Below are positions 1,462 to 12,568 of a DNA stretch of 12,568 bases, piece after piece. The stretch is from a virus (lineage: Duplodnaviria; Heunggongvirae; Uroviricota; Caudoviricetes), in the IMG/VR virus record IMGVR_UViG_2740892115_000002; one strand, 5' to 3'. The position numbers and the translations under genes are program-made. The notes beneath the pieces are model-generated. The model searched no databases. It was not told the DNA's origin and saw nothing but the letters and a program-made list of their open reading frames with translations. Within the stretch, counting starts at the first letter, position 1. The number at the start of each line of letters is the position of its first letter.

Positions 1462-1910
1462 ATATGTCCTTTTATCACTATATCAAGACAAACCATTGAT
1501 TTAATTAAATAATCTGCACTGCAAAAAGTGCCAAAAATCGCAAATTGACTACACCATTAACTACACCGTTCGGTGCACCGTATGAAACAACGTGGAACAA
1601 ATAGACACAAGAAATATACAGGCGGATCATCTTTCCAGGGGGAAGCGCACCAATTCATGAGGGGCGTTAATGTCTATATGGGGATCCCCACCTACCGGAA
1701 TTTTTTTCCGGTTAAACGTTAATCAGGCTGGTGGGCTTTACCTGTTCGGTAGGTGTTATGATTATCGTAATACCTTTCCCCCAATGGGGTAAAAGCATCA
1801 ACCGTAACGAAAGTCGTTATGGTTGCCTTGATGGTCTGCGTGGTCATTATGACCATTCAGAATTTGAAGGGTGATGTTTCCGATCTCCTCAAATTGAGGT
1901 TGCCGGAAAT

Positions 1911-2130
1911 ATCAACGGGTTAGGCCAGAGTGCAAATTTGCACTCTGGAACAATTCCAACCAGTTATCGGCATCAGGCCCACCAGCCAACGCAATTTTGA
2001 GCTTTGCTTTAATCTCAGTGAGTTACCGCGCCAATTTCCGCAGTCTGTGTAAATTGGGAAGAATCAACGGGTTAGGCTGGTTTCCCCGATGTTCGCCGCT
2101 GGCGAATTTCGAAAATATCAACCAGTTACC
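1911..2130 (+). repeat. Four direct copies of a 12-14 bp motif ATCAAC(G/C)(G/A)GTTA
   Basis: Copies at 1911-1925 (atcaacgggttaggc), 1955-1968 (tccaaccagttatc), 2063-2077 (atcaacgggttaggc), 2117-2130 (atcaaccagttacc). All in the same orientation in ORF-free DNA; the last overlaps the stop of the 93-aa ORF. Confidence 0.6.
1925..1948. promoter_or_regulatory. 24-bp perfect palindrome ccagagtgcaaa/tttgcactctgg; candidate dimeric protein binding site or recombination core
   Basis: First half ccagagtgcaaa is the exact reverse complement of second half tttgcactctgg. Directly abuts the first ATCAACGGGTTAGG repeat. No flanking T-run on either strand, so not a terminator. Confidence 0.5.
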
Positions 2131-2407
2131 GCCGTAACCGCTCCGGCTTCTTCCAGTGGTACGTAATTTTTGCTTTTTCCCTGTACGTCTGCACGCGGCG
2201 ACGGTAGGCCAGCATTTCAAGAACGCGGATCCGTATGTCGCGCATATCAACATCATTAAGCTGGATACCATCACGGCGCATCACCTCAGCAACAACACGC
2301 ACATAATTTTCAGCGGTCACGCTGTCCGGCTGTGTGGCCTGTTCGTCATGCTGCTGGCTGATTCCGGTAACGCGGCGGATTAATCCCAGTAGTTCGGCTT
2401 CTGTCAT
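2126..2407 (-). CDS. Hypothetical 93-aa protein adjacent to the cos region
   Basis: ORF with GGGGG Shine-Dalgarno-like sequence 4 nt upstream of the ATG. Basic C-terminus. The opposite-strand ORF 2156..2383 looks like a low-complexity antisense artifact. No family recognised. Confidence 0.5.
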   Translation of the reverse strand: MTEAELLGLIRRVTGISQQHDEQATQPDSVTAENYVRVVAEVMRRDGIQLNDVDMRDIRIRVLEMLAYRRRVQTYREKAKITYHWKKPERLRR

Positions 2408-2440
2408 TGTGCCCCCATCGCTCTGATAGTCTGGTGTCGT

Positions 2441-2670
2441 CGGGTCCTTCCTGGAATTATGGCCCGTTACGGGGCGGCGACCTCGCGGTTTTTCGCTATT
2501 TATGAGATTTTTTGAGGGGGTGGTTGTTGTTTAATTGTTTGGTATATCTAATTGATAAGTAAGGTAAAAATAAAATAAATACAACAACCTTACGATGTAT
2601 TTTGATGTCATTAATGTGAAAAAATTCAATGATATCAAATGGTTTTGTAAAAACACATGGTTGTTGTATC
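2441..2670 (+). other. cos-like site A (rightward orientation): lambda-type cosN plus GGTTGTTGT repeat set
   Basis: 2462-2487 gcccgttacg|gggcggcgacct|cgcg matches the lambda cosN and 12-nt cohesive end GGGCGGCGACCT as I recall it (core 2472-2483), followed by TTTTTCGCTATTTATGA as in the lambda left end. Inward repeats GGTTGTTGT at 2522-2530 and 2659-2667, inverted ACAACAACC at 2581-2589, with AT-rich spacers. Confidence 0.6.
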
Positions 2671-2844
2671 GCGTATTTGATGGCGTAACAGAAAGTGATT
2701 TTTAACTTTACCGCTCTGTAACTACGGATTATTCCATGCTGGCACGGAGAACGGCTACGGCATGACGCCACCCAGCCTATACAGAACAGTAAAGCCGATA
2801 AATTGTTAATCACGCGCAGCAATGCGTGTGATTTTTGCACACTT

Positions 2845-3038
2845 CCGGTTAACGGGTACGATGTCCGGTTTTAGTGTCTGTTTTTTGCGCATGTCCGGTT
2901 CATAGAAAGCATGTTTTTATATTTTTCATATGGTTAACTTGCAGAGAAACCGGACATGGATCCCGGAAAATTTTCATAAATAGTGAAAACGCGCGAGGTC
3001 GCCGCCCCGTAACGGGCCATAATTCCAGGAAGGACCCG
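2845..3038 (-). other. cos-like site B (leftward orientation): lambda-type cosN plus ATGTCCGGTT repeat set
   Basis: Read on the minus strand from 3038: cosN (core 2996-3007), then CGTTTTCACTATTTATGAAAATTTTCCGG, which is nearly identical to lambda sequence just inside cosN from memory. Then ATGTCCGGTT-type repeats at 2948-2957, 2891-2900 and 2861-2870 in a direct/inverted/inverted pattern, spaced roughly 50, 105 and 135 bp from cosN, reminiscent of lambda R3/R2/R1 with an AT-rich stretch between. Confidence 0.65.
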
Positions 3039-3067: not shown

Positions 3068-3481
3068 TCAGATGGTTTTCAGTATGCGATCGATGTCGCC
3101 GTCATCGCCCTGGTTTCTGCCATCGTATGCCATGCCAGCTGATACGGCTTGCGGGCTGTGCATGTCCATAAAGTTTTCAAAGGCTGCGGTAAGCTCTGGT
3201 GCAACCTTTGGGCGCTCCTGCTCTATGGTCATGTTCAGGATTTCACGAGCATTATCGACGCTAATACATGGCACGTTTGCCATTGCACGTAACAGCGGCT
3301 GATAGTCTTTATGCTCATGAAGCGCCATAATCGCATCAGCGCGCGGCTTGTCCTGCTCTTCCAGTTTGTTTAGTTGATATACGGCCTCATAGGTTGATAA
3401 ACCTCTGTCAGCCATTGCCCGCGCTTCGGCTTTAAATTTACTCGCCAGCGGTAGCGTCATGATGCTTTCATTCGTTGCCAT
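3068..3481 (-). CDS. Hypothetical 137-aa protein, last gene of the capsid operon
   Basis: ORF 12 nt downstream of the gpD-like gene on the same strand, followed by the terminator. No family recognised. Confidence 0.55.
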   Translation of the reverse strand: MATNESIMTLPLASKFKAEARAMADRGLSTYEAVYQLNKLEEQDKPRADAIMALHEHKDYQPLLRAMANVPCISVDNAREILNMTIEQERPKVAPELTAAFENFMDMHSPQAVSAGMAYDGRNQGDDGDIDRILKTI

Positions 3482-3493
3482 CGTTCCCCCTGC

Positions 3494-3829
3494 TTATCGG
3501 GCCAGCGGCTGAACGGATACGCCGGAACCCGCAAAGGCGGCGCATTTTTTCGCATCGGTGTCGACGCTCTCAGGCCAGTTAACGGCGGCAATATTGAATA
3601 TCCCCGTCTTGTAACACTGTGCTGATTTCTGCTTTGACGTGTCCACAGGGTACGAGGTCAGATAAACAGCCTTGCCAGATTCCTTACCATCCCACGGCTT
3701 AAACTCGCCATTGTCCGCCAGCATCAGCGGGGTAAATTCCTGAATAACGCCAGCATCAGCGGCAAAATGTACCAGCGTCGTGGCGACCTGCTGACTGCCT
3801 GCAAATAACTCAATGTATGGAGTGTCCAT
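3494..3829 (-). CDS. Head decoration protein, lambda gpD-like (111 aa)
   Basis: Size and motifs resemble lambda gpD from memory: TPLMLAD, WDG, YKTGIF...WPE, KKCAAFAGSGVSV versus lambda TPLMLD, WDG, YKSGTF...WPE, KKRTAFAGTAISIV. Confidence 0.75.
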   Translation of the reverse strand: MDTPYIELFAGSQQVATTLVHFAADAGVIQEFTPLMLADNGEFKPWDGKESGKAVYLTSYPVDTSKQKSAQCYKTGIFNIAAVNWPESVDTDAKKCAAFAGSGVSVQPLAR

Positions 3830-3840
3830 AGAATCCCCCG

Positions 3841-4896
3841 TTAACCAATTTTGACGGTAACAAATTTGCGAATATCTGCCGGAACCGGCTGCGGTGCGCT
3901 GTGCGTCTGCACGTACTCAATCGCCGGATCGCCGTCCTCAATCCAGTTTTTCGGGTAAAACATGTTTTGCGTTGCGCCCGTTCTTACTGCGTCCTGATCC
4001 ATAATCGCACCATAGGCCACCAGCCCTTTATTGTTGGTGTTGCCCAGGACAAGCAAATCAGGCTCAAGGAAATATTTTTCTGTGCCGTCGCTGTCAGTGT
4101 ATTTGCCGGAATAGACGATAAGGGCAATATCGCCCAGATAGCCTTTAAAGCTCACCACTTCGCCCAGGTTTTTACAGGCCAGCTCTGCGGCGGACTCTGA
4201 ACCACGGGAAAGATCGTACAGCTCACGGAATTTTTTAAAGCTGCGTAACGTTCGCCATACCTCAGCGCCCATAATCATGACGTTTGCGGGGCAACCAGCC
4301 TGATCGGCGTATAGTTCGATATCATAGATTGGATCGTGGGTTTCTTTGTCCTGCTCTGACCATTTTTTCCCGTCGGCCTGCTCTATGATGTTTTTTTCCG
4401 GTATCTTCCAGTCGATTTCATAGCGCTCTATGCCTTCGCCTTCAATGATGTTTTTTCCGGTCGTTACCGCATTTACCGCCAGCCATTCCACGCGCGCTTT
4501 TATGGCGTTTATCTGGCGGCGCATATTGCCAGTAATCAGGCGCATACGGCGATAGGTAGGGTCGTTAAGCTGTGCCGGATCTTCTCCAGCCATGCGCATG
4601 ATGGTTTTCGTTGGATCGATTTCGTGCTTTGGCTTCATGTAGCCAGGTTTAATCGTGCTGGTTTCGTACCCTTTATCGCGCTGAACCTGGCTACCCACCA
4701 TAGGCGAACAAAACGCCGACATGGTGACTTCTTCAATGTCCAGGGTATCCAGCATGATGTTTTGCGTGCTGAATGTCGCCACGTTCGGGAAAAACAGCGT
4801 GGTAAACAGCGGACTGAATTTAAATTCCGCAATATCCCCGCGATTCAGGTACGCAAAAAGCTGGTTAGTGTTAAGTGCCATTGCTTTTACTGTCAT
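3841..4896 (-). CDS. Major capsid protein, lambda gpE-like (351 aa)
   Basis: Multiple conserved blocks shared with lambda gpE as recalled: FKFSPLF..LFF, KPGYMKPKHE, EDPAQLNDPTYRRMR, WSEQDKETHDP, RGSESAAELACKNLGEVVSFKGYLGDIALIVYSGKY, VLGNTNNKGL.AYG, YPKNWIEDGDPA, SAP. Start overlaps the upstream ORF stop (TAATG). Confidence 0.88.
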   Translation of the reverse strand: MTVKAMALNTNQLFAYLNRGDIAEFKFSPLFTTLFFPNVATFSTQNIMLDTLDIEEVTMSAFCSPMVGSQVQRDKGYETSTIKPGYMKPKHEIDPTKTIMRMAGEDPAQLNDPTYRRMRLITGNMRRQINAIKARVEWLAVNAVTTGKNIIEGEGIERYEIDWKIPEKNIIEQADGKKWSEQDKETHDPIYDIELYADQAGCPANVMIMGAEVWRTLRSFKKFRELYDLSRGSESAAELACKNLGEVVSFKGYLGDIALIVYSGKYTDSDGTEKYFLEPDLLVLGNTNNKGLVAYGAIMDQDAVRTGATQNMFYPKNWIEDGDPAIEYVQTHSAPQPVPADIRKFVTVKIG

Positions 4897-5102
4897 TATT
4901 CACCCCCGTGAACCTGATTCATACCCAGCGCCGCGCGTAAATAGGCGCGTACCTGCCAGCCTGTTGACGGCTCAACCATCGCCAGCGGATCAAGTCCTGC
5001 CGCAATGCCTGCTTTTACGTTCTGCTGGTGGCGTTCCTTGAGCGCCTTCACGATGTCGGGGCTTATGTACACCGAAATACCGCCTTTTTTCTCTTCAGCC
5101 AT
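4896..5102 (-). CDS. Hypothetical 68-aa protein, first gene of the capsid operon
   Basis: AGAGGAA Shine-Dalgarno-like sequence upstream of the ATG at 5102. Stop overlaps the capsid start by 1 nt, suggesting translational coupling. No family recognised. Confidence 0.5.
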   Translation of the reverse strand: MAEEKKGGISVYISPDIVKALKERHQQNVKAGIAAGLDPLAMVEPSTGWQVRAYLRAALGMNQVHGGE

Positions 5103-5137
5103 AGTAAGAAATTCCTCTTTGACTTAAAAAATCATAA

Positions 5138-5187
5138 CTGGATGTTCATCCAGCTCTGATTATAATCAGGATTGCATTTTGTGCAAT
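5138..5187 (-). promoter_or_regulatory. Candidate late-operon promoter overlapped by three adjacent palindromes
   Basis: Palindromes ctggatg-tt-catccag (5138-5153), ctgattataatcag (5156-5169) and attgca-ttttg-tgcaat (5171-5187). On the minus strand, TATAAT (5164..5159) with TTGCAC about 16 nt upstream (5186..5181), placing a start site about 50 nt upstream of the ATG at 5102. Confidence 0.45.
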
Positions 5188-5265
5188 GATATTGAGTTGT
5201 GTTGCAAATTATGAAATGATTATCCCGATCATGTGTGTCAGTGCACCAAAAAGCCTCATATGCAA

Positions 5266-5305
5266 AAGCCCGATAAGCCACCTCTGACCTTATCGGGCTT
5301 TTTTA
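5266..5305 (+). terminator. Plus-strand rho-independent terminator with no annotated plus-strand gene upstream
   Basis: Stem aagcccgataag / cttatcgggctt with an 11-nt loop, followed by TTTTTTAT on the plus strand. Confidence 0.5.
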
Positions 5306-5469
5306 TCTGCCTGCAAAGATGTCGAACAAAAATTAACCACAACCATCATCTTTTTTGCATCAAAACAATTAAAAACAATAAATTACGCTCATGATGATGA
5401 TGACGATAAAATCACAAAAATGCGCTTTTTTCCGCGCTTCCCGCCCCGTGTTCAGGCCCACCCCGCCAG

Positions 5470-5492
5470 GAGGACCCGTAAAAAAGCCGGAT
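5470..5492 (-). terminator. Rho-independent terminator after ssb
   Basis: Stem gccgga/tccggc with loop ttgc, followed on the minus strand by a U-run (plus-strand A-run 5470-5476). Nearly identical in sequence to the terminator at 3040-3062. Confidence 0.7.
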
Positions 5493-5517
5493 TGCTCCGG
5501 CTTCTGTCTCTCGTCGC

Positions 5518-5940
5518 TTAAAACGGTATGTTATCCCCGTACGGATCATCATTCCCCGCCTGTTGTTTTGCCCTGTTCAGCGCGTCAGTAGCCTGGCCCT
5601 GTTGACCTTTTTTGCCGCCCAGTCGCGCCGTTCGCGCACTGATTACACTGTCTGCGATAACCTGCCAGCCCTGCCGCGTTTCTCCGTTCTGCCCAGTCCA
5701 CTGGCTGATCTGCATGTTACCCGCCACGCTCAGGAGTTCACCCTTGCGGTGCCTTTCCAGTGCTTCGGCCTGTCTGCCAAATGCCAGGACGGATAACCAC
5801 ATCGTCGCCGTTCCGTCATCTGCCTGGCTGCACGGAAGGGGGACCGCCATACGCGCCAGCGTCATCGGTGTGCCCTTGCTGGTCTGTTTTACCTGCGGGT
5901 CGTCCACCAGCCGCCCGTAAGCTGCTATCTGTGCTGTCAT
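5518..5940 (-). CDS. ssb: Single-stranded DNA-binding protein (SSB-like, 140 aa)
   Basis: OB-fold-like N-terminal region with SSB-like blocks (LSVLAFGRQAEALERHRKGELLSVAGNMQISQWTGQNGETRQGWQV), Gly/Gln-rich linker, and acidic C-terminal tail ending DDPYGDNIPF, comparable to the DDDIPF tail of E. coli SSB. Confidence 0.8.
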   Translation of the reverse strand: MTAQIAAYGRLVDDPQVKQTSKGTPMTLARMAVPLPCSQADDGTATMWLSVLAFGRQAEALERHRKGELLSVAGNMQISQWTGQNGETRQGWQVIADSVISARTARLGGKKGQQGQATDALNRAKQQAGNDDPYGDNIPF

Positions 5941-6259: not shown

Positions 6260-6495
6260 CCCTTGTCTACCTTATCTACCTTAGTGGCCCTCATGCCAGT
6301 AATGGCGCGGCTTTCAGCGGGGTAGAGTGCTTTTATCCACTATCTACCCCGTGTCTACCTCCCTGTCTGATTCAGGTAAAATCAGGTAGAGAGGGTAGAT
6401 AGTGGGTAGACAGTAAAAAAAGGCTATCTACCTAACTTAATGCACTGAATTAAATGTATTTTTCTTTACTCAGGTAGACAGGGTAGACAGCAATT
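6260..6495. repeat. Replication origin-like iteron array (about 11 copies of the 7-bp unit TCTACC / GGTAGA in both orientations around an AT-rich core)
   Basis: gtctacc and atctacc at 6265-6280, ggtagag at 6321, atctacc and gtctacc at 6342-6359, ggtagag-ggtagat-ggtagac at 6386-6411, atctacc at 6426, ggtagac-ggtagac at 6474-6489, with an AT-rich segment at 6434-6471. Located immediately 3' of the primase-helicase gene, as in satellite and PICI origins. Confidence 0.7.
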
Positions 6496-6503
6496 ACAAA
6501 AAA

Positions 6504-8258
6504 TTATAAAAACGCGTCGCACTCGTCTGTTGTTATTGCGTTAGTCTGCGTTACCCCCTTAACTTTCCGCGTAATATATTCATGTCCGTAAACTTTTGCG
6601 GCAGGCTTCATAGCCTTTCCAAAGTCATTTACGTTTAGCGGTTTGCTCCTGCCTGCGTATGCCATAAACGCCAGATAGACGCGGTAAAGGCTGTTCCTGG
6701 TCGTGTACTTCACTGAATCGCCACCGCCCCCCATCATCAGGCCGCGCGCTTCCTCCAGAAAATTCAGGAACTGGCAAAACTCAATAACCGGATCCGTCTG
6801 TTGCTTTATTGCCAGTGCTTCATCACCGTCACGCTGTTCCAGTAGTAAAGCCCGTGCCTTCTCAGGGTCGGTAAAGTTCGCCAGCAATCGGCGGATAATG
6901 ACAGGGATTTCAGCCGCGATCTTTTCCGGTAGCTCCCTGTCTTTTTCGGCCTCACTGACGATATTGTCGAAACGGAAAATCACGCGACGACGTGCCACAC
7001 CTCCGGCCCGTTCGGTGAATATCATCGGGTTATTGTTGGTCGCCAGCACCACCGCCCTGATTACAGCCGTGAAACGCTTTTCGTATTTCGGGTTAATTTC
7101 CACGGGGTCACCGCCCGTGATTTTCTTGATGCCCGTTCCTTCGCCTGTATATTTCGGCTGGTCAGCCAGGACGATAAGACGACTCCCGACAACCTGCGCA
7201 CGTCCACCAGCATCATCAAGCGATGTCATTTCAGCGCTTACCGTGTTCTGTTTCCCTGCCAGAAGGCTGGCTATGTGCGTGAATGTACTTTTACCGCTCC
7301 CGCCGTCTCCGGTGGCCTCAATAAACATCTGCCAGTCGTACCGGTTCGCCATAATCATGTACAGCGCGGCACATATACGCATCATCTTGCGCGGGTCTTT
7401 TCCGGCTGCGTGCTCAAGCCATTTATGAAAGTTTGGCGCGTTATCGCGGATGTTCTCCCCTGGTGCTGGTGGCGTGTACTCAATGCCGTTGTGCGTGGTG
7501 ATCCAGTTCTCCGGCGTGTGCGGGGAAAATCCCCCCGTTTTCAGGTCAAGCGCACCATTGGCGAACGGCAGCAAATCGCCGGACGGCTCGCCCATTGGTT
7601 CGGCAATAACTTTTAACGCTTCCACGGCGTTATTGATTACGCGCTTGCTGAAAGTGGCCCTGTGCTCTGAATAGATCGCCACCATTTCGCGGCTAAGTTC
7701 CATTGTGCTGACCGGACACCATACCCCGCCGCGCCATACGTGAACGATTTCACTTTCAGGATGTACGCAAACGCCATCAAAGCGATCGGCAAGCAGCTGC
7801 GCGCGCTCACTGTCCGCCATCTGCGAAAGTTGCGCCTTTTGCTTTACCGGAAGCTCAATGACCAGACCATCAGAAAGATTCTGGCGCTCACGGGCCAGAT
7901 ATTCGCGCCAGTTCTCCACCTTCTGACCGTGCATACCATCAGGGTAAAAATTTGCATCCTGTACGCCTGCCGCCGCCAGCTTCTGGCCAATCGCCTTTAT
8001 CATTACTGGCGCAAGATATCCGGCCCTGAATATGCGCACGGATTTTCTGCCTTCCGGCACAATTTGCAGCTTATCCAGTTCTGATAACTGCTGCTCCCCA
8101 AGCCACACAGGAGGCTCATTATCTCCGGCCATACGCGCATCATGTTCCTGCCATTGTTTCGCGTGTGCCCAGGCATCACTACCCGCAAAAATAATGACTT
8201 CTGTTCCTTTGTGTTTTATGCCGCGTGACTGCTGTTTTACGTTCGGTGCCAGTTTCAT
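6504..8258 (-). CDS. Replication initiator, P4 alpha / D5-family primase-helicase-like (584 aa)
   Basis: Walker A motif GDGGSGKST and downstream D5/P4-type helicase-like blocks. Size and position (upstream of iterons) fit a pri-rep gene. AGGGG Shine-Dalgarno-like sequence; start overlaps the upstream ORF stop (ATGA). Confidence 0.8.
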   Translation of the reverse strand: MKLAPNVKQQSRGIKHKGTEVIIFAGSDAWAHAKQWQEHDARMAGDNEPPVWLGEQQLSELDKLQIVPEGRKSVRIFRAGYLAPVMIKAIGQKLAAAGVQDANFYPDGMHGQKVENWREYLARERQNLSDGLVIELPVKQKAQLSQMADSERAQLLADRFDGVCVHPESEIVHVWRGGVWCPVSTMELSREMVAIYSEHRATFSKRVINNAVEALKVIAEPMGEPSGDLLPFANGALDLKTGGFSPHTPENWITTHNGIEYTPPAPGENIRDNAPNFHKWLEHAAGKDPRKMMRICAALYMIMANRYDWQMFIEATGDGGSGKSTFTHIASLLAGKQNTVSAEMTSLDDAGGRAQVVGSRLIVLADQPKYTGEGTGIKKITGGDPVEINPKYEKRFTAVIRAVVLATNNNPMIFTERAGGVARRRVIFRFDNIVSEAEKDRELPEKIAAEIPVIIRRLLANFTDPEKARALLLEQRDGDEALAIKQQTDPVIEFCQFLNFLEEARGLMMGGGGDSVKYTTRNSLYRVYLAFMAYAGRSKPLNVNDFGKAMKPAAKVYGHEYITRKVKGVTQTNAITTDECDAFL

Positions 8259-9229: not shown

Positions 9230-9449
9230 GTACCCCTCCGCATTTTTTTTCGTTAGAAATAAGCGTTCTTCTTTCCTGTTCATCGCTCAGGAATACGCAG
9301 ACCTCACCGCTAAGGCGTTTAAGTAAGCCGATGATTGCCCCTGATTCGCTGTCGGTCATCATGCCAGGGTAATCCTCTGCCAGTGCGCAAATAACTTCGA
9401 TTTGGTGGGCGCGTTCTGCTGCCTGTTGTAGTGTGATTTCCTGGCTCAT
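9219..9449 (-). CDS. Hypothetical 76-aa protein
   Basis: ORF whose start overlaps the stop of the upstream frame (ATGA at 9446-9449), part of the tightly coupled operon. Confidence 0.5.
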   Translation of the reverse strand: MSQEITLQQAAERAHQIEVICALAEDYPGMMTDSESGAIIGLLKRLSGEVCVFLSDEQERRTLISNEKKCGGVHVQ

Positions 9450-10732
9450 AAGCCTACCCCCTGACGAATACGGGCAGCAAATACCATCACGCAGCCAGCC
9501 GGAGATTGCTGGCGTGCTTCCTGTTCGCTGGTGGCCTCAATGGTAATCACGCGCGGTTGTGCCGTGCTCAGGGCGATAAAACGCCAGATGTATTTATTCA
9601 GGTTGTGCGAGTCCCGCCCTTGCGGGTGTGTGGTATGATTTAACATAGCTACCTCGATACTTTCGCTATCGTTGGTGGTTAGAAGCCCTGCGAGTGGTAA
9701 CGACACTTGCGGGGCTTTGCATTTATGCACCTTGATAATCTCAAGGTGTGGCCCACTATATGCTTTAGGTGTGGCCCACGTCAAGGGTTTTATTTGTGCT
9801 TTTTCTGTGTATACTGTCCCCCACCAATCCAACAGAGGAATAGAAATGGCAACGGGTACAACAAACGCAAAATCACAAGCTCTAAAGGCTCGTGTACCAC
9901 ACGAAATAGTAAACGCCATGGAATCAGTGAAAGAATCAGGCGAAAGCACATCACAATTCATCATTGCGTCAATGCAAGGCGAGATCAAACGCCGCCAGCG
10001 CCGCAAGGCCAAAGAGCAGGAGTAACCATCACCAGCGCCGTGGTGTGAGTAACTACGGCGCATTGCTATGCAGGACAACACAATGACCGATAAAGAATTG
10101 ACCAAAACATTATCACCGGCACGGAAAAGACGGCGCAGAAAGATAGAGCATGAATCAGAAAGATTCGCGCCATGTGCTTTTGCCCTTGAGCAATTCCTTA
10201 AAGAGTACAGGGAAAAGCGCTCATTGCAGGTATGGCAACGAACTGAACCTGACTGATTGCATTGCCCACCAGCCGCAAATGTGGCATTGTTGGCAATGCT
10301 CATGCGTTGGGGATAACGTGTAGCTTGTGTCGAGGGGCCACCGTAGCGGGTGGCCTTTGTTTTGCCCGTTATTCGGCAATTGTGGCGCTTCTCCACATGG
10401 TTGATATAATCCCACTGCTCAGATTCATTTTTTGCGCAGTAGGTTAATTGTTCACAAAGGCGCTCCGGCAACGGGGCGCTTTTTGTTTTTATTAGTTTGT
10501 AGAAACCTGACTCAGAGATAATGCTCATATTCTGATTGCCGTCAGGGGTGTAAGTTAAATTTACTCCCTTTTTATCATCAAACATCTGCAACGCTCTGGC
10601 GTTAACAATATTGGTTTCACTCCCGCCAGTAAGGCCGGAAATAACCGGAATAATTTCGGCAAAATTTTGCAGATTCTGTTTTTCAGGACGAACGAAGCCC
10701 CGCCCTTGTTCGGGAGAATATCCAGTATTCAT
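9446..10732 (-). CDS. Uncertain 428-aa open frame; likely a real N-terminal domain (about 115 aa from 10732) and/or a short C-terminal gene (possible start 9643, 66 aa), with the middle unlikely to be coding
   Basis: The N-terminal part has normal protein-like composition (NLTYTPDGNQNMSIISESGFYKLI, faintly like phage antirepressor N-domains). The central part is Cys/Arg/Ser-rich and antisense to two plus-strand small ORFs with good Shine-Dalgarno-like sequences. No in-frame stop until 9446. Confidence 0.3.
   Translation of the reverse strand: MNTGYSPEQGRGFVRPEKQNLQNFAEIIPVISGLTGGSETNIVNARALQMFDDKKGVNLTYTPDGNQNMSIISESGFYKLIKTKSAPLPERLCEQLTYCAKNESEQWDYINHVEKRHNCRITGKTKATRYGGPSTQATRYPQRMSIANNATFAAGGQCNQSGSVRCHTCNERFSLYSLRNCSRAKAHGANLSDSCSIFLRRLFRAGDNVLVNSLSVIVLSCIAMRRSYSHHGAGDGYSCSLALRRWRRLISPCIDAMMNCDVLSPDSFTDSMAFTISCGTRAFRACDFAFVVPVAISIPLLDWWGTVYTEKAQIKPLTWATPKAYSGPHLEIIKVHKCKAPQVSLPLAGLLTTNDSESIEVAMLNHTTHPQGRDSHNLNKYIWRFIALSTAQPRVITIEATSEQEARQQSPAGCVMVFAARIRQGVGL
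9744..9779. promoter_or_regulatory. Divergent control region with two direct 13-bp repeats AGGTGTGGCCCAC (9744-9756, 9767-9779)
   Basis: Repeats 23 bp apart in the intergenic region between the minus-strand small-ORF operon and the plus-strand RHH-like gene. A TATACT -10-like hexamer at 9811-9816 lies upstream of the plus-strand ATG at 9846. Confidence 0.5.
9846..10025 (+). CDS. Small ribbon-helix-helix-like DNA-binding protein (59 aa), candidate island repressor or regulator
   Basis: AGAGGAA Shine-Dalgarno-like sequence 5 nt upstream of the ATG. Sequence pattern of a beta-strand followed by two helices (KSQALKARVPHEIVNAMESVKE...STSQFIIASMQ) and a basic tail RRQRRKAKEQE. Family assignment is by pattern only. 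Confidence 0.5.
   Translation: MATGTTNAKSQALKARVPHEIVNAMESVKESGESTSQFIIASMQGEIKRRQRRKAKEQE
10083..10256 (+). CDS. Possible small basic protein (57 aa from the ATG at 10083; the ORF is open from 10068)
   Basis: AGGA 7 nt upstream of the ATG at 10083. Contains an RKRRRRK stretch. Weak support. Confidence 0.3.
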   Translation: MTDKELTKTLSPARKRRRRKIEHESERFAPCAFALEQFLKEYREKRSLQVWQRTEPD

Positions 10733-10784: not shown

Positions 10785-10973
10785 TTAGTGAACTGCCTCG
10801 CAGCTGTCCTTCCATGCCAGAACTTCGGATAAAGACCAGCCAACGGAACGACCGCCCAGCTTACGCCGTGATGGGAATTGTCCGGCTTTTTCCAGGCGGT
10901 ACCGACATGAGCGGCTCAGGCCTGTAAGTTGCTGACATTCTTTTTCACGTATAAAGCGATCTGTGCTTAACAC
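10785..10973 (-). CDS. alpA: AlpA-family (phage Xis/MerR-like) transcriptional regulator, 62 aa
   Basis: Matches the AlpA pattern as recalled: LTGLSRSCRYRLEKAGQFPSRRKLGGRSVGWSLSEVLAW versus AlpA TG..R.TIY......FP....LG.KSVGW...EI..W. Position next to the integrase is typical. Confidence 0.75.
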   Translation of the reverse strand: MLSTDRFIREKECQQLTGLSRSCRYRLEKAGQFPSRRKLGGRSVGWSLSEVLAWKDSCEAVH

Positions 10974-11254
10974 AATTCCCCCTTTGTTGTTTCTTAAAGA
11001 GTCATTGGGTGGATTATTGGGTTGGGTTGTGTCGGATTGTGTCAGGGTGTTTGTGGAATGGCAAACACTGGCGGCGGTCGTTTTACAGAAGCAGGGGAAA
11101 TGAGAATAAAAACTCTTTTAATTCATTATGATGCAAAGGCATAAAATTTTACTTTTACGCCTTTTTTACATATTTTTAAGAGTGATTCGCCAGTGTATAA
11201 AAAAACAGTACACCTATAAAAATCAAATGGTTATTACGATGGCTGATTTTTAAC

Positions 11255-11313
11255 CCGTTGTTCCATTTTGTTCCTTGTTGTTCGTCGTTGTGTCTCGTTG
11301 TTTCACGTTGTCC
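11255..11313. repeat. Six tandem copies of a CGTTGT-containing unit at about 10-bp periodicity, directly 3' of the integrase gene
   Basis: ccgttgttcc / ttttgttcc / ttgttgttcg / tcgttgtgtc / tcgttgtttc / acgttgtcc, with units starting near 11256, 11267, 11277, 11286, 11296 and 11306. A related GT-rich set (ggttgtgtc, gattgtgtc) lies at about 11025-11055 near the alpA 5' region. Confidence 0.6.
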
Positions 11314-11338
11314 GCATCCTGAAAAATCGCAAAAAAAA

Positions 11339-12568
11339 TTATATTTCTCTGGCTATTGGCAATGTGGTTACGTTTTCATGTGTTCCCGCCAGTATCCCTA
11401 ACCGCTCCGTCCACATATCCAGCGCGTCACGTTTCGCATCCAGATAACGGGAATGGTTATAGACTCGTTGCATCCCTGGCATCTGATGACCTGTAAGCTG
11501 CTCCACGACGTGAGGATCCACGCCTAAATCGTTCAGCATCGTTGTAAAGGTGCGCCGGATGTCATGCAGTGACCAGTGAGGGTGTTTTAGCCTCCTGTGC
11601 GCTAATCTGCCGTACTGCGACACGCTTGTTTCCTGTTTCACTTCCCCCAGCAATAAGCCCGTGTGCCTGTTCTGCTCCACCAGCTGCGTGACGAACGGCA
11701 GTATTGCTTCCGGTATGGGCCGGAATATTGCCACCTTCGTTTTGCTGTGTTCTTTCGGCACGGTCCAGAGCATTTCGGTAAAATCCCACTCGCTGATCTC
11801 CGATAACCTCAGTTCTACCGTCCGGCATCCGAAAACAATCAGGAGGCGGATTAGTGCGACGTAGTAAGGGGAAAATATTTTTTTGTCCAGTGCCTGCAAT
11901 AATTCGCCAAGTTCTTTGGTGCTTAAGACGCGCTCGCTTATATCCGGTTTTTTCCCAACGTCCGCCACACTCATATCATCAAGAACGTTGCTGATTGCAT
12001 AGCGCCGCCTCCGGCAGAACTTAAGCGCCTGTTTGCACGTCTGTAGCAAGAATCCGGCAGTAACAGGCGTTCGCTTTGCCACCTGGTCAAAACAGGCCAG
12101 CCAGTGCCGTAGCTCGCATTTATCCAGCGGCATAGCACCAATGTGCTGTATTACGTGATTATTAAGGCGCTTTTTCAGGGCGGCATAATCCACGCGGTTT
12201 TCCTTTGCGTACGACTCAAGCCAGTAGGTGAGCGCATCGCCAACCGTTACCGGCTTTAACGCTTCCTGTACGGTGTAATTCATTTCATGACGTGGATTTT
12301 TCCCCTCTGCCAGCCATGCGCGACACTGGGCGGCTTTTTCCCTGGCTGATTTCAGGCTCAGATCAGGATAATTTCCCAGCTTAATGCGTTCCGGTGGTGC
12401 CCCCCTTCCCGTTCCGGCCCTGTAAGTGAAATACCAGGTTAAAAGGCCACTGGTTGAATGCCTGACGCTCAGGTTTCCACCGTCATTAAGAAAGGCTGTT
12501 TTTTGGGCGGGTGTGCCGTTGATTTTCCTCAGCTGTGTATCGCTCAGTTTGTTAAGTGCTCTGCTCAT
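11339..12568 (-). CDS. int: Tyrosine recombinase, P4-type integrase (409 aa; start codon at the window edge)
   Basis: N-terminal arm-binding-like region typical of P4-family integrases (DGGNLSV...W.F.YR......R..LG.YP..SLKSAREKA...AWLAEGKNP). C-terminal catalytic region includes HDIRRTF and HxxR...Y (RVYNHSRY). The start lies on the last base of the window, so an upstream in-frame start cannot be excluded. Confidence 0.9.
   Translation of the reverse strand: MSRALNKLSDTQLRKINGTPAQKTAFLNDGGNLSVRHSTSGLLTWYFTYRAGTGRGAPPERIKLGNYPDLSLKSAREKAAQCRAWLAEGKNPRHEMNYTVQEALKPVTVGDALTYWLESYAKENRVDYAALKKRLNNHVIQHIGAMPLDKCELRHWLACFDQVAKRTPVTAGFLLQTCKQALKFCRRRRYAISNVLDDMSVADVGKKPDISERVLSTKELGELLQALDKKIFSPYYVALIRLLIVFGCRTVELRLSEISEWDFTEMLWTVPKEHSKTKVAIFRPIPEAILPFVTQLVEQNRHTGLLLGEVKQETSVSQYGRLAHRRLKHPHWSLHDIRRTFTTMLNDLGVDPHVVEQLTGHQMPGMQRVYNHSRYLDAKRDALDMWTERLGILAGTHENVTTLPIAREI

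Follow-up and report, generated by a model that had tools for sequence, protein, structure and literature searches.

A predicted capsid-module promoter with a candidate LexA box in an EcCICFT073-type phage-inducible chromosomal island

Within the IMG/VR virus record IMGVR_UViG_2740892115_000002 (12,568 nucleotides; "the window" hereafter means this whole stretch), three contiguous palindromes are found at positions 5138-5187, upstream of an operon with homologues of phage capsid genes. We consider it probable that they belong to a sigma-70 promoter of this capsid module, at which the host repressor LexA would act at the transcription start site and the product of the first gene would act as autorepressor at the -35 region. 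The initial annotation had seen here a phage late-operon promoter with stacked operators, possibly read by helper or island regulators. The element is instead a phage-inducible chromosomal island (PICI) of the EcCICFT073 type, located next to phoQ. Comparative evidence upholds a minus-strand capsid-operon promoter overlapped by operators, but part of the proposed operator identities has to be revised, among them that of the downstream palindrome, which matches a host LexA (SOS) box instead of a helper or island site. This candidate SOS box is the new point, while the devices themselves are familiar, and it suggests how the capsid module could be timed in one PICI lineage.

The palindrome cluster

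An independent scan returned the three palindromes as perfect inverted repeats (letters of the plus strand):

5138-5153, palindrome 1: ctggatg-tt-catccag, arm 7, loop 2
5156-5169, palindrome 2: ctgattataatcag, arm 7, loop 0
5171-5187, palindrome 3: attgca-ttttg-tgcaat, arm 6, loop 5

Further perfect repeats with arms of at least 6 and loops of at most 5 nucleotides are absent from 5000-5400, and across the window 24 palindromes fit this definition, or 1.9 per kb. Among 1000 Markov sequences (12.5 kb) with the composition of the window, 2 had three non-overlapping palindromes within 50 bp, as did 1 of 1000 generated with the AT-richer intergenic composition. The cluster is real and non-random. 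Read on the minus strand it has the form ATTGCACAAAATGCAAT-CC-TGATTATAATCA-GAG-CTGGATGAACATCCAG.

The predicted minus-strand promoter

The palindromes overlie a predicted promoter, listed here with the neighbouring expression signals:

5264-5305, both strands: bidirectional intrinsic terminator, GCCCGATAAG...CTTATCGGGC, flanked by an A-run and a T-run
5181-5186, minus strand: -35-like hexamer TTGCAC, 3/6 consensus positions, TTGC invariant
5159-5164, minus strand: -10 hexamer TATAAT, 6/6 consensus positions, inside palindrome 2
5150-5155, minus strand: transcription start near 5152, predicted from promoter geometry only, 5-9 nt downstream of the -10
5131-5126, minus strand: T-run of the leader
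5119-5114, minus strand: ribosome-binding site AAGAGG, followed by the start codon of a 68-aa gene at 5102-5100

As the initial annotation had noticed, TTGCAC (5186-5181) precedes TATAAT on the minus strand; the distance is exactly 16 nt and lies within the 16-18 bp typical of sigma-70 hexamers.

For comparison, homologous regions were gathered from E. coli genomes, one-genome-per-species contigs, assemblies and IMG/VR. A query of the genome contigs with a single capsid protein gave no match, and an alignment-based search was required. Four clades share the geometry of the promoter, namely E. coli clade A (46 distinct promoter sequences), a Salmonella-type clade (68-69% capsid identity), a second E. 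coli clade at 65% identity (the 65% clade hereafter) and Edwardsiella, also at 65%. The geometry TTGCxx-16 nt-TA(T/A)AAT is kept in all four, the capsid proteins of which are 65-69% identical to that of the window. The -10 reads TATAAT in clade A and the Salmonella-type islands and TAAAAT in the 65% clade and Edwardsiella, while positions 5 and 6 of the -35 hexamer vary among the 46 clade-A variants and the other clades (TTGCAT, TTGCGC, TTGCAA, TTGCGA). Each clade shows the same order of an equivalent terminator, promoter, T-run and AAGAGG ribosome site. Variation inside clade A is found in the linkers (5169-5170 and 5154-5156), in the centre of palindrome 1 (5145-5147) and at 5181-5182; the palindrome arms are essentially invariant.

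A hairpin equivalent to the 5264-5305 terminator occupies the same position in every clade, and the homology modules shared between islands break there. Such a strong terminator isolates the operon from the ssb and replication genes, hence a promoter is needed downstream of it. Taken together, a sigma-70 minus-strand promoter of the capsid-homologue operon is well supported by the comparison of sequences. It is also widespread: among 5,426 complete E. coli genomes, 233 (Nissle 1917 and ATCC 25922 being two of them) have the 123-bp promoter region with an identity of at least 90%, O157:H7 carries a variant (89-91% identity, LexA box of 20.3 bits), and Salmonella relatives carry it as well. A blastn search of 5103-5262 against phage records gave no match; thus, the promoter was not borrowed from a sequenced phage.

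Palindrome 1 as a candidate LexA box

The downstream palindrome is the core, CTG-N10-CAG, of the following element:

5136-5155: candidate LexA box, 20-mer AACTGGATGTTCATCCAGCT, about -3 to +17 relative to the predicted start

As in LexA operators (consensus TACTGTATATATATACAGTA), CTG-N10-CAG forms a palindrome of 16 bp, the centre of which is AT-rich. A position weight matrix built from 18 published E. coli sites (PMC3009722, Table 4) gives its best match in the whole window at 5136-5155, with 18.65 bits. Known sites, each left out in turn, reach 6.6-27.6 bits (ruvA 18.4, cho 19.4). Random sequence of the window's composition is expected to yield 0.003 such matches per window (12.5 kb), and no match of 14 bits or more was found in unrelated genomic loci amounting to 278 kb.

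The box is kept in 52 of 52 distinct box-bearing promoters from E. coli, Salmonella-type and Lelliottia islands, with 16.1-22.1 bits. Across the 46 clade-A variants CTG-N10-CAG is invariant, whereas the box centre and the flanks vary. Four distinct sequences have CATACAG in place of CATCCAG, which turns the half-site into the consensus ACAG and raises the LexA score to 21.6 bits, while the stability of the corresponding hairpin falls from -8.3 to -2.8 kcal/mol. Moreover, in the Lelliottia island (L061) a canonical box of unrelated sequence, CACTGTTTTTTCATACAGTT (20.9 bits), lies 25 nt ahead of the small first gene, and this box folds poorly (-4.1 kcal/mol). Changes that break the hairpin but improve the LexA match, together with the replaced box in Lelliottia, speak for an operator in the DNA rather than for a hairpin or terminator in the RNA. 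In the window the 20-mer (5155-5136) begins 3 nt past the end of the -10 at 5159, so that bound LexA would cover the predicted start site. We regard palindrome 1 as a strong match to a host LexA (SOS) box and as a candidate operator.

Nevertheless, control at the RNA level has to be considered. Palindrome 1 and the T-run could form a leader hairpin or terminator after a constitutive promoter, and the spacer element AAAATGCAAT (-28 to -19) could load a Q-like or AlpA-like antiterminator. [quoted passage not shown] AlpA is the known positive regulator of these PICIs. In addition, a scan flags 5155-5136 together with ATGATTTTTT as terminator-like, and folding of the 62-nt leader gives -16.2 kcal/mol (z = -2.4). 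However, the T-run is offset by 5 nt from the stem; the natural variants reduce the stem to -2.8 kcal/mol, keep CTG-N10-CAG and show no compensatory changes; and the Lelliottia box makes a poor hairpin of -4.1 kcal/mol. Spacer element and T-run are also found in the 65% clade and in Edwardsiella, where there is no hairpin, and the alpA promoter, which is activated by AlpA, has no conserved TGCA element. A stable GC-rich hairpin directly before a U-run, conserved in structure, as expected of an intrinsic terminator or antitermination cassette, is not found at this site. The stretch TTTTTT...AGTCAAAGAGGAAT is kept in all clades with the small gene, including those without a preceding hairpin; hence, the T-run more likely belongs to the leader and ribosome-site context than to a terminator tail. 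We therefore judge RNA-level control to be unlikely and keep the LexA operator as the preferred reading of palindrome 1.

A second-best match to the LexA matrix is located at 11191-11210 between int and alpA (CAGTGTATAAAAAAACAGTA, 18.1 bits), with one imperfect half-site (GTG for CTG). In two relatives the same position scores 19.0 and 16.1 bits. Through this site SOS might weakly affect alpA or int, although, according to published reporters, alpA is not SOS-inducible without helper.

Palindrome 3 and the first gene of the operon

The upstream palindrome and the gene that may encode its binding protein are as follows:

5173-5185: 13-bp symmetric element TGCA-CAAAA-TGCA, core of palindrome 3 (5171-5187), centre about -27, over the -35
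4896-5102, minus strand: 68-aa first gene (phrog_3255), candidate ribbon-helix-helix autorepressor

The layout resembles the operator of CopG of plasmid pMV158 (PMC2724298). There, a 13-bp symmetric element covering the -35 is made up of two TGCA boxes with a gap of 5 bp, one ribbon-helix-helix dimer binds to each half, and the repressor gene opens the operon. In the window TGCA-CAAAA-TGCA at 5185-5173 has this CopG/Arc-type arrangement, the 68-aa gene is the first of the operon, and the operator travels with the gene. An inverted repeat TTGC(A/G)-N5-TG(C/A)AA is found upstream of the small gene in six of the seven gene-bearing clades, namely in clade A, the Salmonella-type and 65% clades, Edwardsiella, Lelliottia and the contig L150. 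Edwardsiella has two copies three turns apart. L150, which encodes the most divergent homologue of the small protein and has no capsid gene after it, still has the repeat upstream. No N5 element was found in islands without the small gene. This co-inheritance makes the gene a probable ribbon-helix-helix autorepressor.

The protein itself gives fainter signals. It follows the pattern GG-V-S-V-Y-I-S-P-D-I-V-x-A-L, then a second helix, and the putative beta-strand VSVYIS is invariant wherever the TGCA boxes are kept; in the contig L066 both strand and boxes differ. An AlphaFold model (pLDDT 73) has an unpaired extended N-terminus and helices at 15-34 and 47-58. An hhalign comparison places strand and first helix in register with CopG at a non-significant E-value of 0.084, and single family members have weak Pfam matches to BrnA (0.017) and RHH_1 (0.36), neither of them significant; other structure searches with the 68-aa protein were empty. 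A ribbon-helix-helix fold is thus suggestive but unproven, and co-inheritance is the stronger argument for the autorepressor. Palindrome 3 is a plausible operator of the first-gene product. With this, the earlier idea of a helper or island site at the upstream palindrome is narrowed: the island's own small first-gene product is the most likely binder, in place of a helper factor.

Palindrome 2 and the -10 region

The initial annotation had counted the central palindrome among the operators and pointed to a TATAAT readable in both directions. The hexamer is indeed present on both strands (plus strand 5161-5166; minus strand 5164-5159). Beyond it, the conserved part is small:

5157-5168: conserved core TGATTATAATCA of palindrome 2, almost invariant in clade A

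The sequence ATTATAAT is self-complementary and supplies 8 of the 14 bp of the palindrome for free. The outermost pair of the palindrome, 5169/5156, varies freely in clade A (C/A/G and G/T/C, with all four combinations present), so the outer C/G pair of the window is not a conserved feature. The arms of the core survive in the 65% clade (TGATTAAAATCA). We regard palindrome 2 as essentially the -10 with symmetric flanks of unproven significance; the clade comparison gave no evidence for a separate operator here.

A palindromic -10 could also serve two divergent promoters, with a plus-strand RNA of about 135 nt from near 5173 to the 5264-5305 terminator. TATAAT on both strands would fit, as would the longer T-run of the terminator, which is on the plus strand in every clade. 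However, the plus strand offers no usable -35 (CTGGAT/TGGATG), the promoter scan listed nothing there, and Rfam had no match for the putative RNA. Furthermore, the plus-strand -10 is weakened in one Salmonella-type variant and lost in the 65% clade, where TAAAAT is a usable -10 on the minus strand only; bidirectional use is therefore not conserved, which speaks against a conserved divergent promoter. We hold a divergent pair to be very unlikely.

An even simpler view would take the whole region as an ordinary unregulated promoter, with palindromes as chance by-products of its AT-rich sequence. The self-complementary ATTATAAT, the -35 at 3/6 and the lack of window-wide enrichment of TGCA pairs agree with it. 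However, such a cluster appears in only 0.1-0.2% of random windows, and the linkers vary whereas the arms do not. Moreover, a LexA match expected 0.003 times per window is conserved and, in Lelliottia, swapped for a non-homologous box. Chance can be almost dismissed as explanation, and a promoter regulated by LexA and the first-gene product stays the preferred one.

Cos-site function was considered as well. The cos-like module at 5315-5483 is separable from the palindromes and absent from relatives that keep them, and a role of the palindromes as part of a cos site was rejected.

Other TGCA boxes and their possible binders

TGCA motifs are not restricted to palindrome 3:

5202-5207: upstream TTGCAA box, TGCA core about -54, within a conserved block at 5190-5221

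This box is kept in clade A, the Salmonella-type and the 65% clades. Its distance from the -35 box, on the upstream side, is about 21 bp, or two turns of the helix. In Edwardsiella a complete second inverted repeat takes its place. Islands without the small gene carry direct TTGCA repeats in 10-bp phase upstream of their -35 (about -52/-42 or -61/-51/-41). Such arrays in gene-less islands mean that another TGCA-binding factor probably exists, which could also act at the promoter of the window.

It is conceivable, if rather improbable, that the TTGCA/TGCAA boxes are sites for a trans-acting activator that all EcCICFT073-like PICIs share and that is encoded outside the operon, with palindrome 3 as one arrangement among several. 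Candidate binders are a helper CII-type activator (TTGC-N6-TTGC), the host proteins CytR or PutA, and an island product of the YlcI/YnfO family. In support, helically phased TGCA boxes stand before the capsid gene in all clades, whether or not the small gene is present; TTGC-N6-TTGC is present in E. coli clades and triple repeats are present in Kluyvera and Superficieibacter; the densest TTGCA cluster of the window is at the promoter (5 in 100 bp); and CytR octamers GTTGCATT are used in direct or inverted order (PMC3454398). On the other side, TGCA-N4-6-TGCA pairs are not enriched window-wide (3 observed, about 1.4 expected), and the N5 inverted form tracks the small gene, as the first-gene repressor reading has it.

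Several specific binders were tried and rejected. For lambda CII, the boxes of pRE are at -39/-29 with the -10 located 13 nt after the second box. The TTGC boxes of the window are 21 bp apart or inverted and include no TTGC-N6-TTGC, and the arrays of the sister clades (-52/-42 or -61/-51/-41) have no -10-like hexamer at the CII distance. CytR needs a flanking CRP site within about 5 nt (PMC3454398), and 5103-5262 has no TGTGA-N6-TCACA with two or fewer mismatches, matches with three being at chance level. AlpA as the TGCA-box binder is at odds with its own alpA promoter, which lacks a conserved TGCA (TTGCAT in the window, TTGTAT in two relatives) and has ACAAC-type direct repeats instead. By eye, a sigma-54 reading of TTGCAC-N4-TGCA fails as well (GG/GC spacing of 9 rather than 11, no GG), as does a MarA/SoxS box, in which GCAC is not conserved (GCAT, GCGC and GCAA variants). 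The motif of PutA would be GTTGCA.

Further repeats are found elsewhere in the island. The early divergent control region at 9647-10025 has the direct repeat AGGTGTGGCCCAC twice (9745-9757 and 9768-9780) and TGCATTTATGCA at 9718, and includes a plus-strand small gene of the YlcI/YnfO family (9846-10025), the sequence of which looks ribbon-helix-helix-like. On the minus strand, direct repeats (A/G)ACAA(C/T)G with a spacing of about 10-11 bp follow int (about 11245-11320) and GACACAA repeats stand just before alpA (10990-11040); both are conserved in relatives and are candidate AlpA or integrase arm-type sites.

Proposed mechanism and points against it

With its perfect -10 the promoter should be intrinsically active and be held off by repressors. 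It would transcribe the 68-aa gene, followed by the homologues of capsid protein E, decoration protein D and a scaffold-like protein. Host LexA would occupy the SOS box of palindrome 1 across the start site, and the operon would be released only upon LexA self-cleavage after DNA damage, the same signal that induces lambdoid helper prophages. The 68-aa product at palindrome 3, over the -35, would then exert negative autoregulation and limit expression after LexA release.

Some observations weigh against this scheme. The -35 agrees with the consensus TTGACA at just 3/6 positions, for which reason a generic promoter scan did not list the TTGCAC/TATAAT pair. A LexA box is absent from the E. coli 65% clade and from the Edwardsiella, CFT073-like, Kluyvera, Cedecea, Superficieibacter and Kosakonia islands; hence, SOS gating would be a feature of a lineage and not universal for the operon. 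The ribbon-helix-helix assignment comes from sub-threshold signals in a tiny family of 13 clusters, and TGCA arrays, spaced by 6-bp gaps, are found upstream of the -35 even in clades that lack the small gene. Furthermore, AlpA is the established positive regulator of these PICIs, and AlpA-dependent induction needs the helper phage, SOS alone being insufficient; the published work on this helper requirement does not address the capsid operon.

A bolder version would describe a two-input gate converging on the SaPI (staphylococcal pathogenicity island) design, with LexA at the start site and a CopG-like ribbon-helix-helix autorepressor at the -35. Its TGCA operators would belong to a family that is common, in other arrangements, to all EcCICFT073-like PICIs, and a partner encoded by the helper might act on them. 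Capsid and interference functions would be primed by SOS without recourse to the AlpA switch, and clades without the box would follow another helper-sensing strategy. We mention this version as a tentative one, which we rather doubt.

Comparison with known systems

The closest parallel is operon I of the SaPIs in S. aureus, which is LexA-controlled, whereas excision and replication depend on a helper-specific switch (Ubeda et al. 2007, Mol Microbiol 65:41, as cited in the PICI literature). Both cases concern a satellite morphogenesis or packaging operon with its own promoter and host LexA repression, the latter being a prediction for the window. The differences are the Gram-negative host, the E. 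coli-type CTG-N10-CAG box, genes similar to lambda E, D and Nu3, and AlpA instead of Stl as master switch; moreover, the candidate box is found in only some PICI clades. Among chromosomal operators, the SOS boxes of ruvAB and cho (CTGG...CCAG type) are similar: the window core is CTGGAT-N4-ATCCAG, 14 of 20 positions equal ruvA CGCTGGATATCTATCCAGCA and the matrix scores are alike. The candidate box of the window differs in its place on a mobile island before capsid-like genes.

CopG at Pcr and P22 Arc at Pant/Pmnt (PMC2724298) share with palindrome 3 and its candidate repressor the 13-bp element, in which a gap of 5 bp separates two 4-bp boxes (TGCA in the case of CopG), its overlap with the -35, the position of the small repressor gene as first of the operon and extra contacts along the promoter. 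In contrast, the 68-aa protein has no significant ribbon-helix-helix match in sequence or fold and a longer loop between the helices, and host and operon content are unrelated. The cassettes of lambda Q and P. aeruginosa AlpA (PMC7969949) have in common with the window a conserved element in the -35/-10 spacer, a hairpin and T-run after the promoter and an island regulator of the AlpA family, but the hairpin of the window is dispensable in sister clades and degraded in variants, and nothing like the AlpA-binding element (ABE) GGGACG-N5-GGTA is present. The lambda CII promoters pRE, pI and paQ also have TTGC repeats around the -35, and the helpers are lambdoid; they differ in that TTGC-N6-TTGC is missing from the window and the repeats of the sister clades are 13-14 bp too far upstream of any -10.

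In the literature searched, we found no description of LexA control of Gram-negative PICIs, and the palindrome and box sequences had no relevant match there. The PICI papers considered (PMC6092414, PMC6739421, PMC11773190, PMC10111431 and bioRxiv 2022.09.08.507074) describe the AlpA switch only and leave LexA unmentioned; absent from them is also the timing of the genes downstream of the replication module, i.e. the capsid-, decoration- and scaffold-like genes near cos. A LexA box on their promoter would be a concrete answer for one widespread lineage. If true, DNA-damaging antibiotics would directly switch on capsid-module genes of a satellite, and Gram-negative PICIs and staphylococcal SaPIs would have reached LexA control of a packaging-side operon independently. 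The presence or absence of the box from clade to clade offers a natural experiment.

Island context

The window begins with the end of phoQ, after which the 10-kb island follows. Its main genes are all on the minus strand, an Icd-like gene and small open reading frames (ORFs) being among them:

1-1461: end of phoQ, at the start of the window
11339-12568, minus strand: tyrosine integrase
10785-10973, minus strand: alpA
6504-8258, minus strand: D5-type primase
5518-5940, minus strand: SSB
3841-4896, minus strand: capsid-E homologue (lambda gpE-type), Pfam Phage_cap_E 2e-52
3494-3829, minus strand: decoration-D homologue (gpD-type), Pfam HDPD 2.5e-17
3068-3481, minus strand: 137-aa scaffold-like protein, C-terminal part of phrog_53, 1.7e-10
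2472-2483 (plus strand) and 2996-3007 (minus strand): exact lambda cosN (GGGCGGCGACCT), inverted orientation as in cos1/cos2 of EcCICFT073

The gene plan, with two cos sites and capsid and decoration homologues, is that of EcCICFT073-type PICIs (PMC6092414, PMC6739421): int, alpA and primase are co-directional, an ori follows the primase, cos sites and the homologues are present and the size is about 10 kb. A non-coding stretch of 415 bp separates the SSB gene from the 68-aa gene. The 137-aa product aligns with positions 495-567 of phrog_53, the C-terminal part of a head-maturation protease (E 1.7e-10), and looks like a Nu3-like scaffold piece; with this match, the island would carry E-, D- and Nu3-like genes and neither portal nor protease.

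The compared 521 bp at 5000-5520 are identical to E. coli HM670, in which the island is located between phoQ and roxA. Between phoQ and the capsid operon the coordinates of window and HM670 are offset by 105 bp, and a 144-aa gene of HM670 has no intact counterpart among the ORFs of the window (region 1462-3000); thus, the window is not identical to HM670 outside the 521 bp compared. The 428-aa ORF at 9446-10732 (minus strand) is probably no gene, and the matching RefSeq genome annotates several small genes on both strands in its place. Downstream of the primase, 6336-6417 forms a long imperfect hairpin with CTACC-type repeats, probably the ori of the island. An Rfam search of the whole window with E up to 1 gave a single match, mir-135 (E 0.3), which is spurious and located inside this hairpin.

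A neighbouring cos-like module

The cos-like module at 5315-5483 (minus strand) is the third of the window and different from the other two; its location is between the terminator of ssb and that at 5264-5305. It contains CACGGGGCGGGAAGCGCGG, the lambda counterpart of which we take to be ACGGGGCGGCGACCTCGCGG, and shares 86% identity with the DNA that directly precedes a DUF1441 small-terminase gene and terL in a lambdoid prophage of E. coli O22:H8. Its presence in a subset of islands only suggests capture of the packaging site of a second helper family. The slot between ssb and the capsid-operon terminator (window 5306-5517) is a swap site among islands, filled by the cos-like module in the window, by a PerC-family regulator and small ORFs in O157:H7 (L002 6355-6978) and by nothing in JNEC-KY172.

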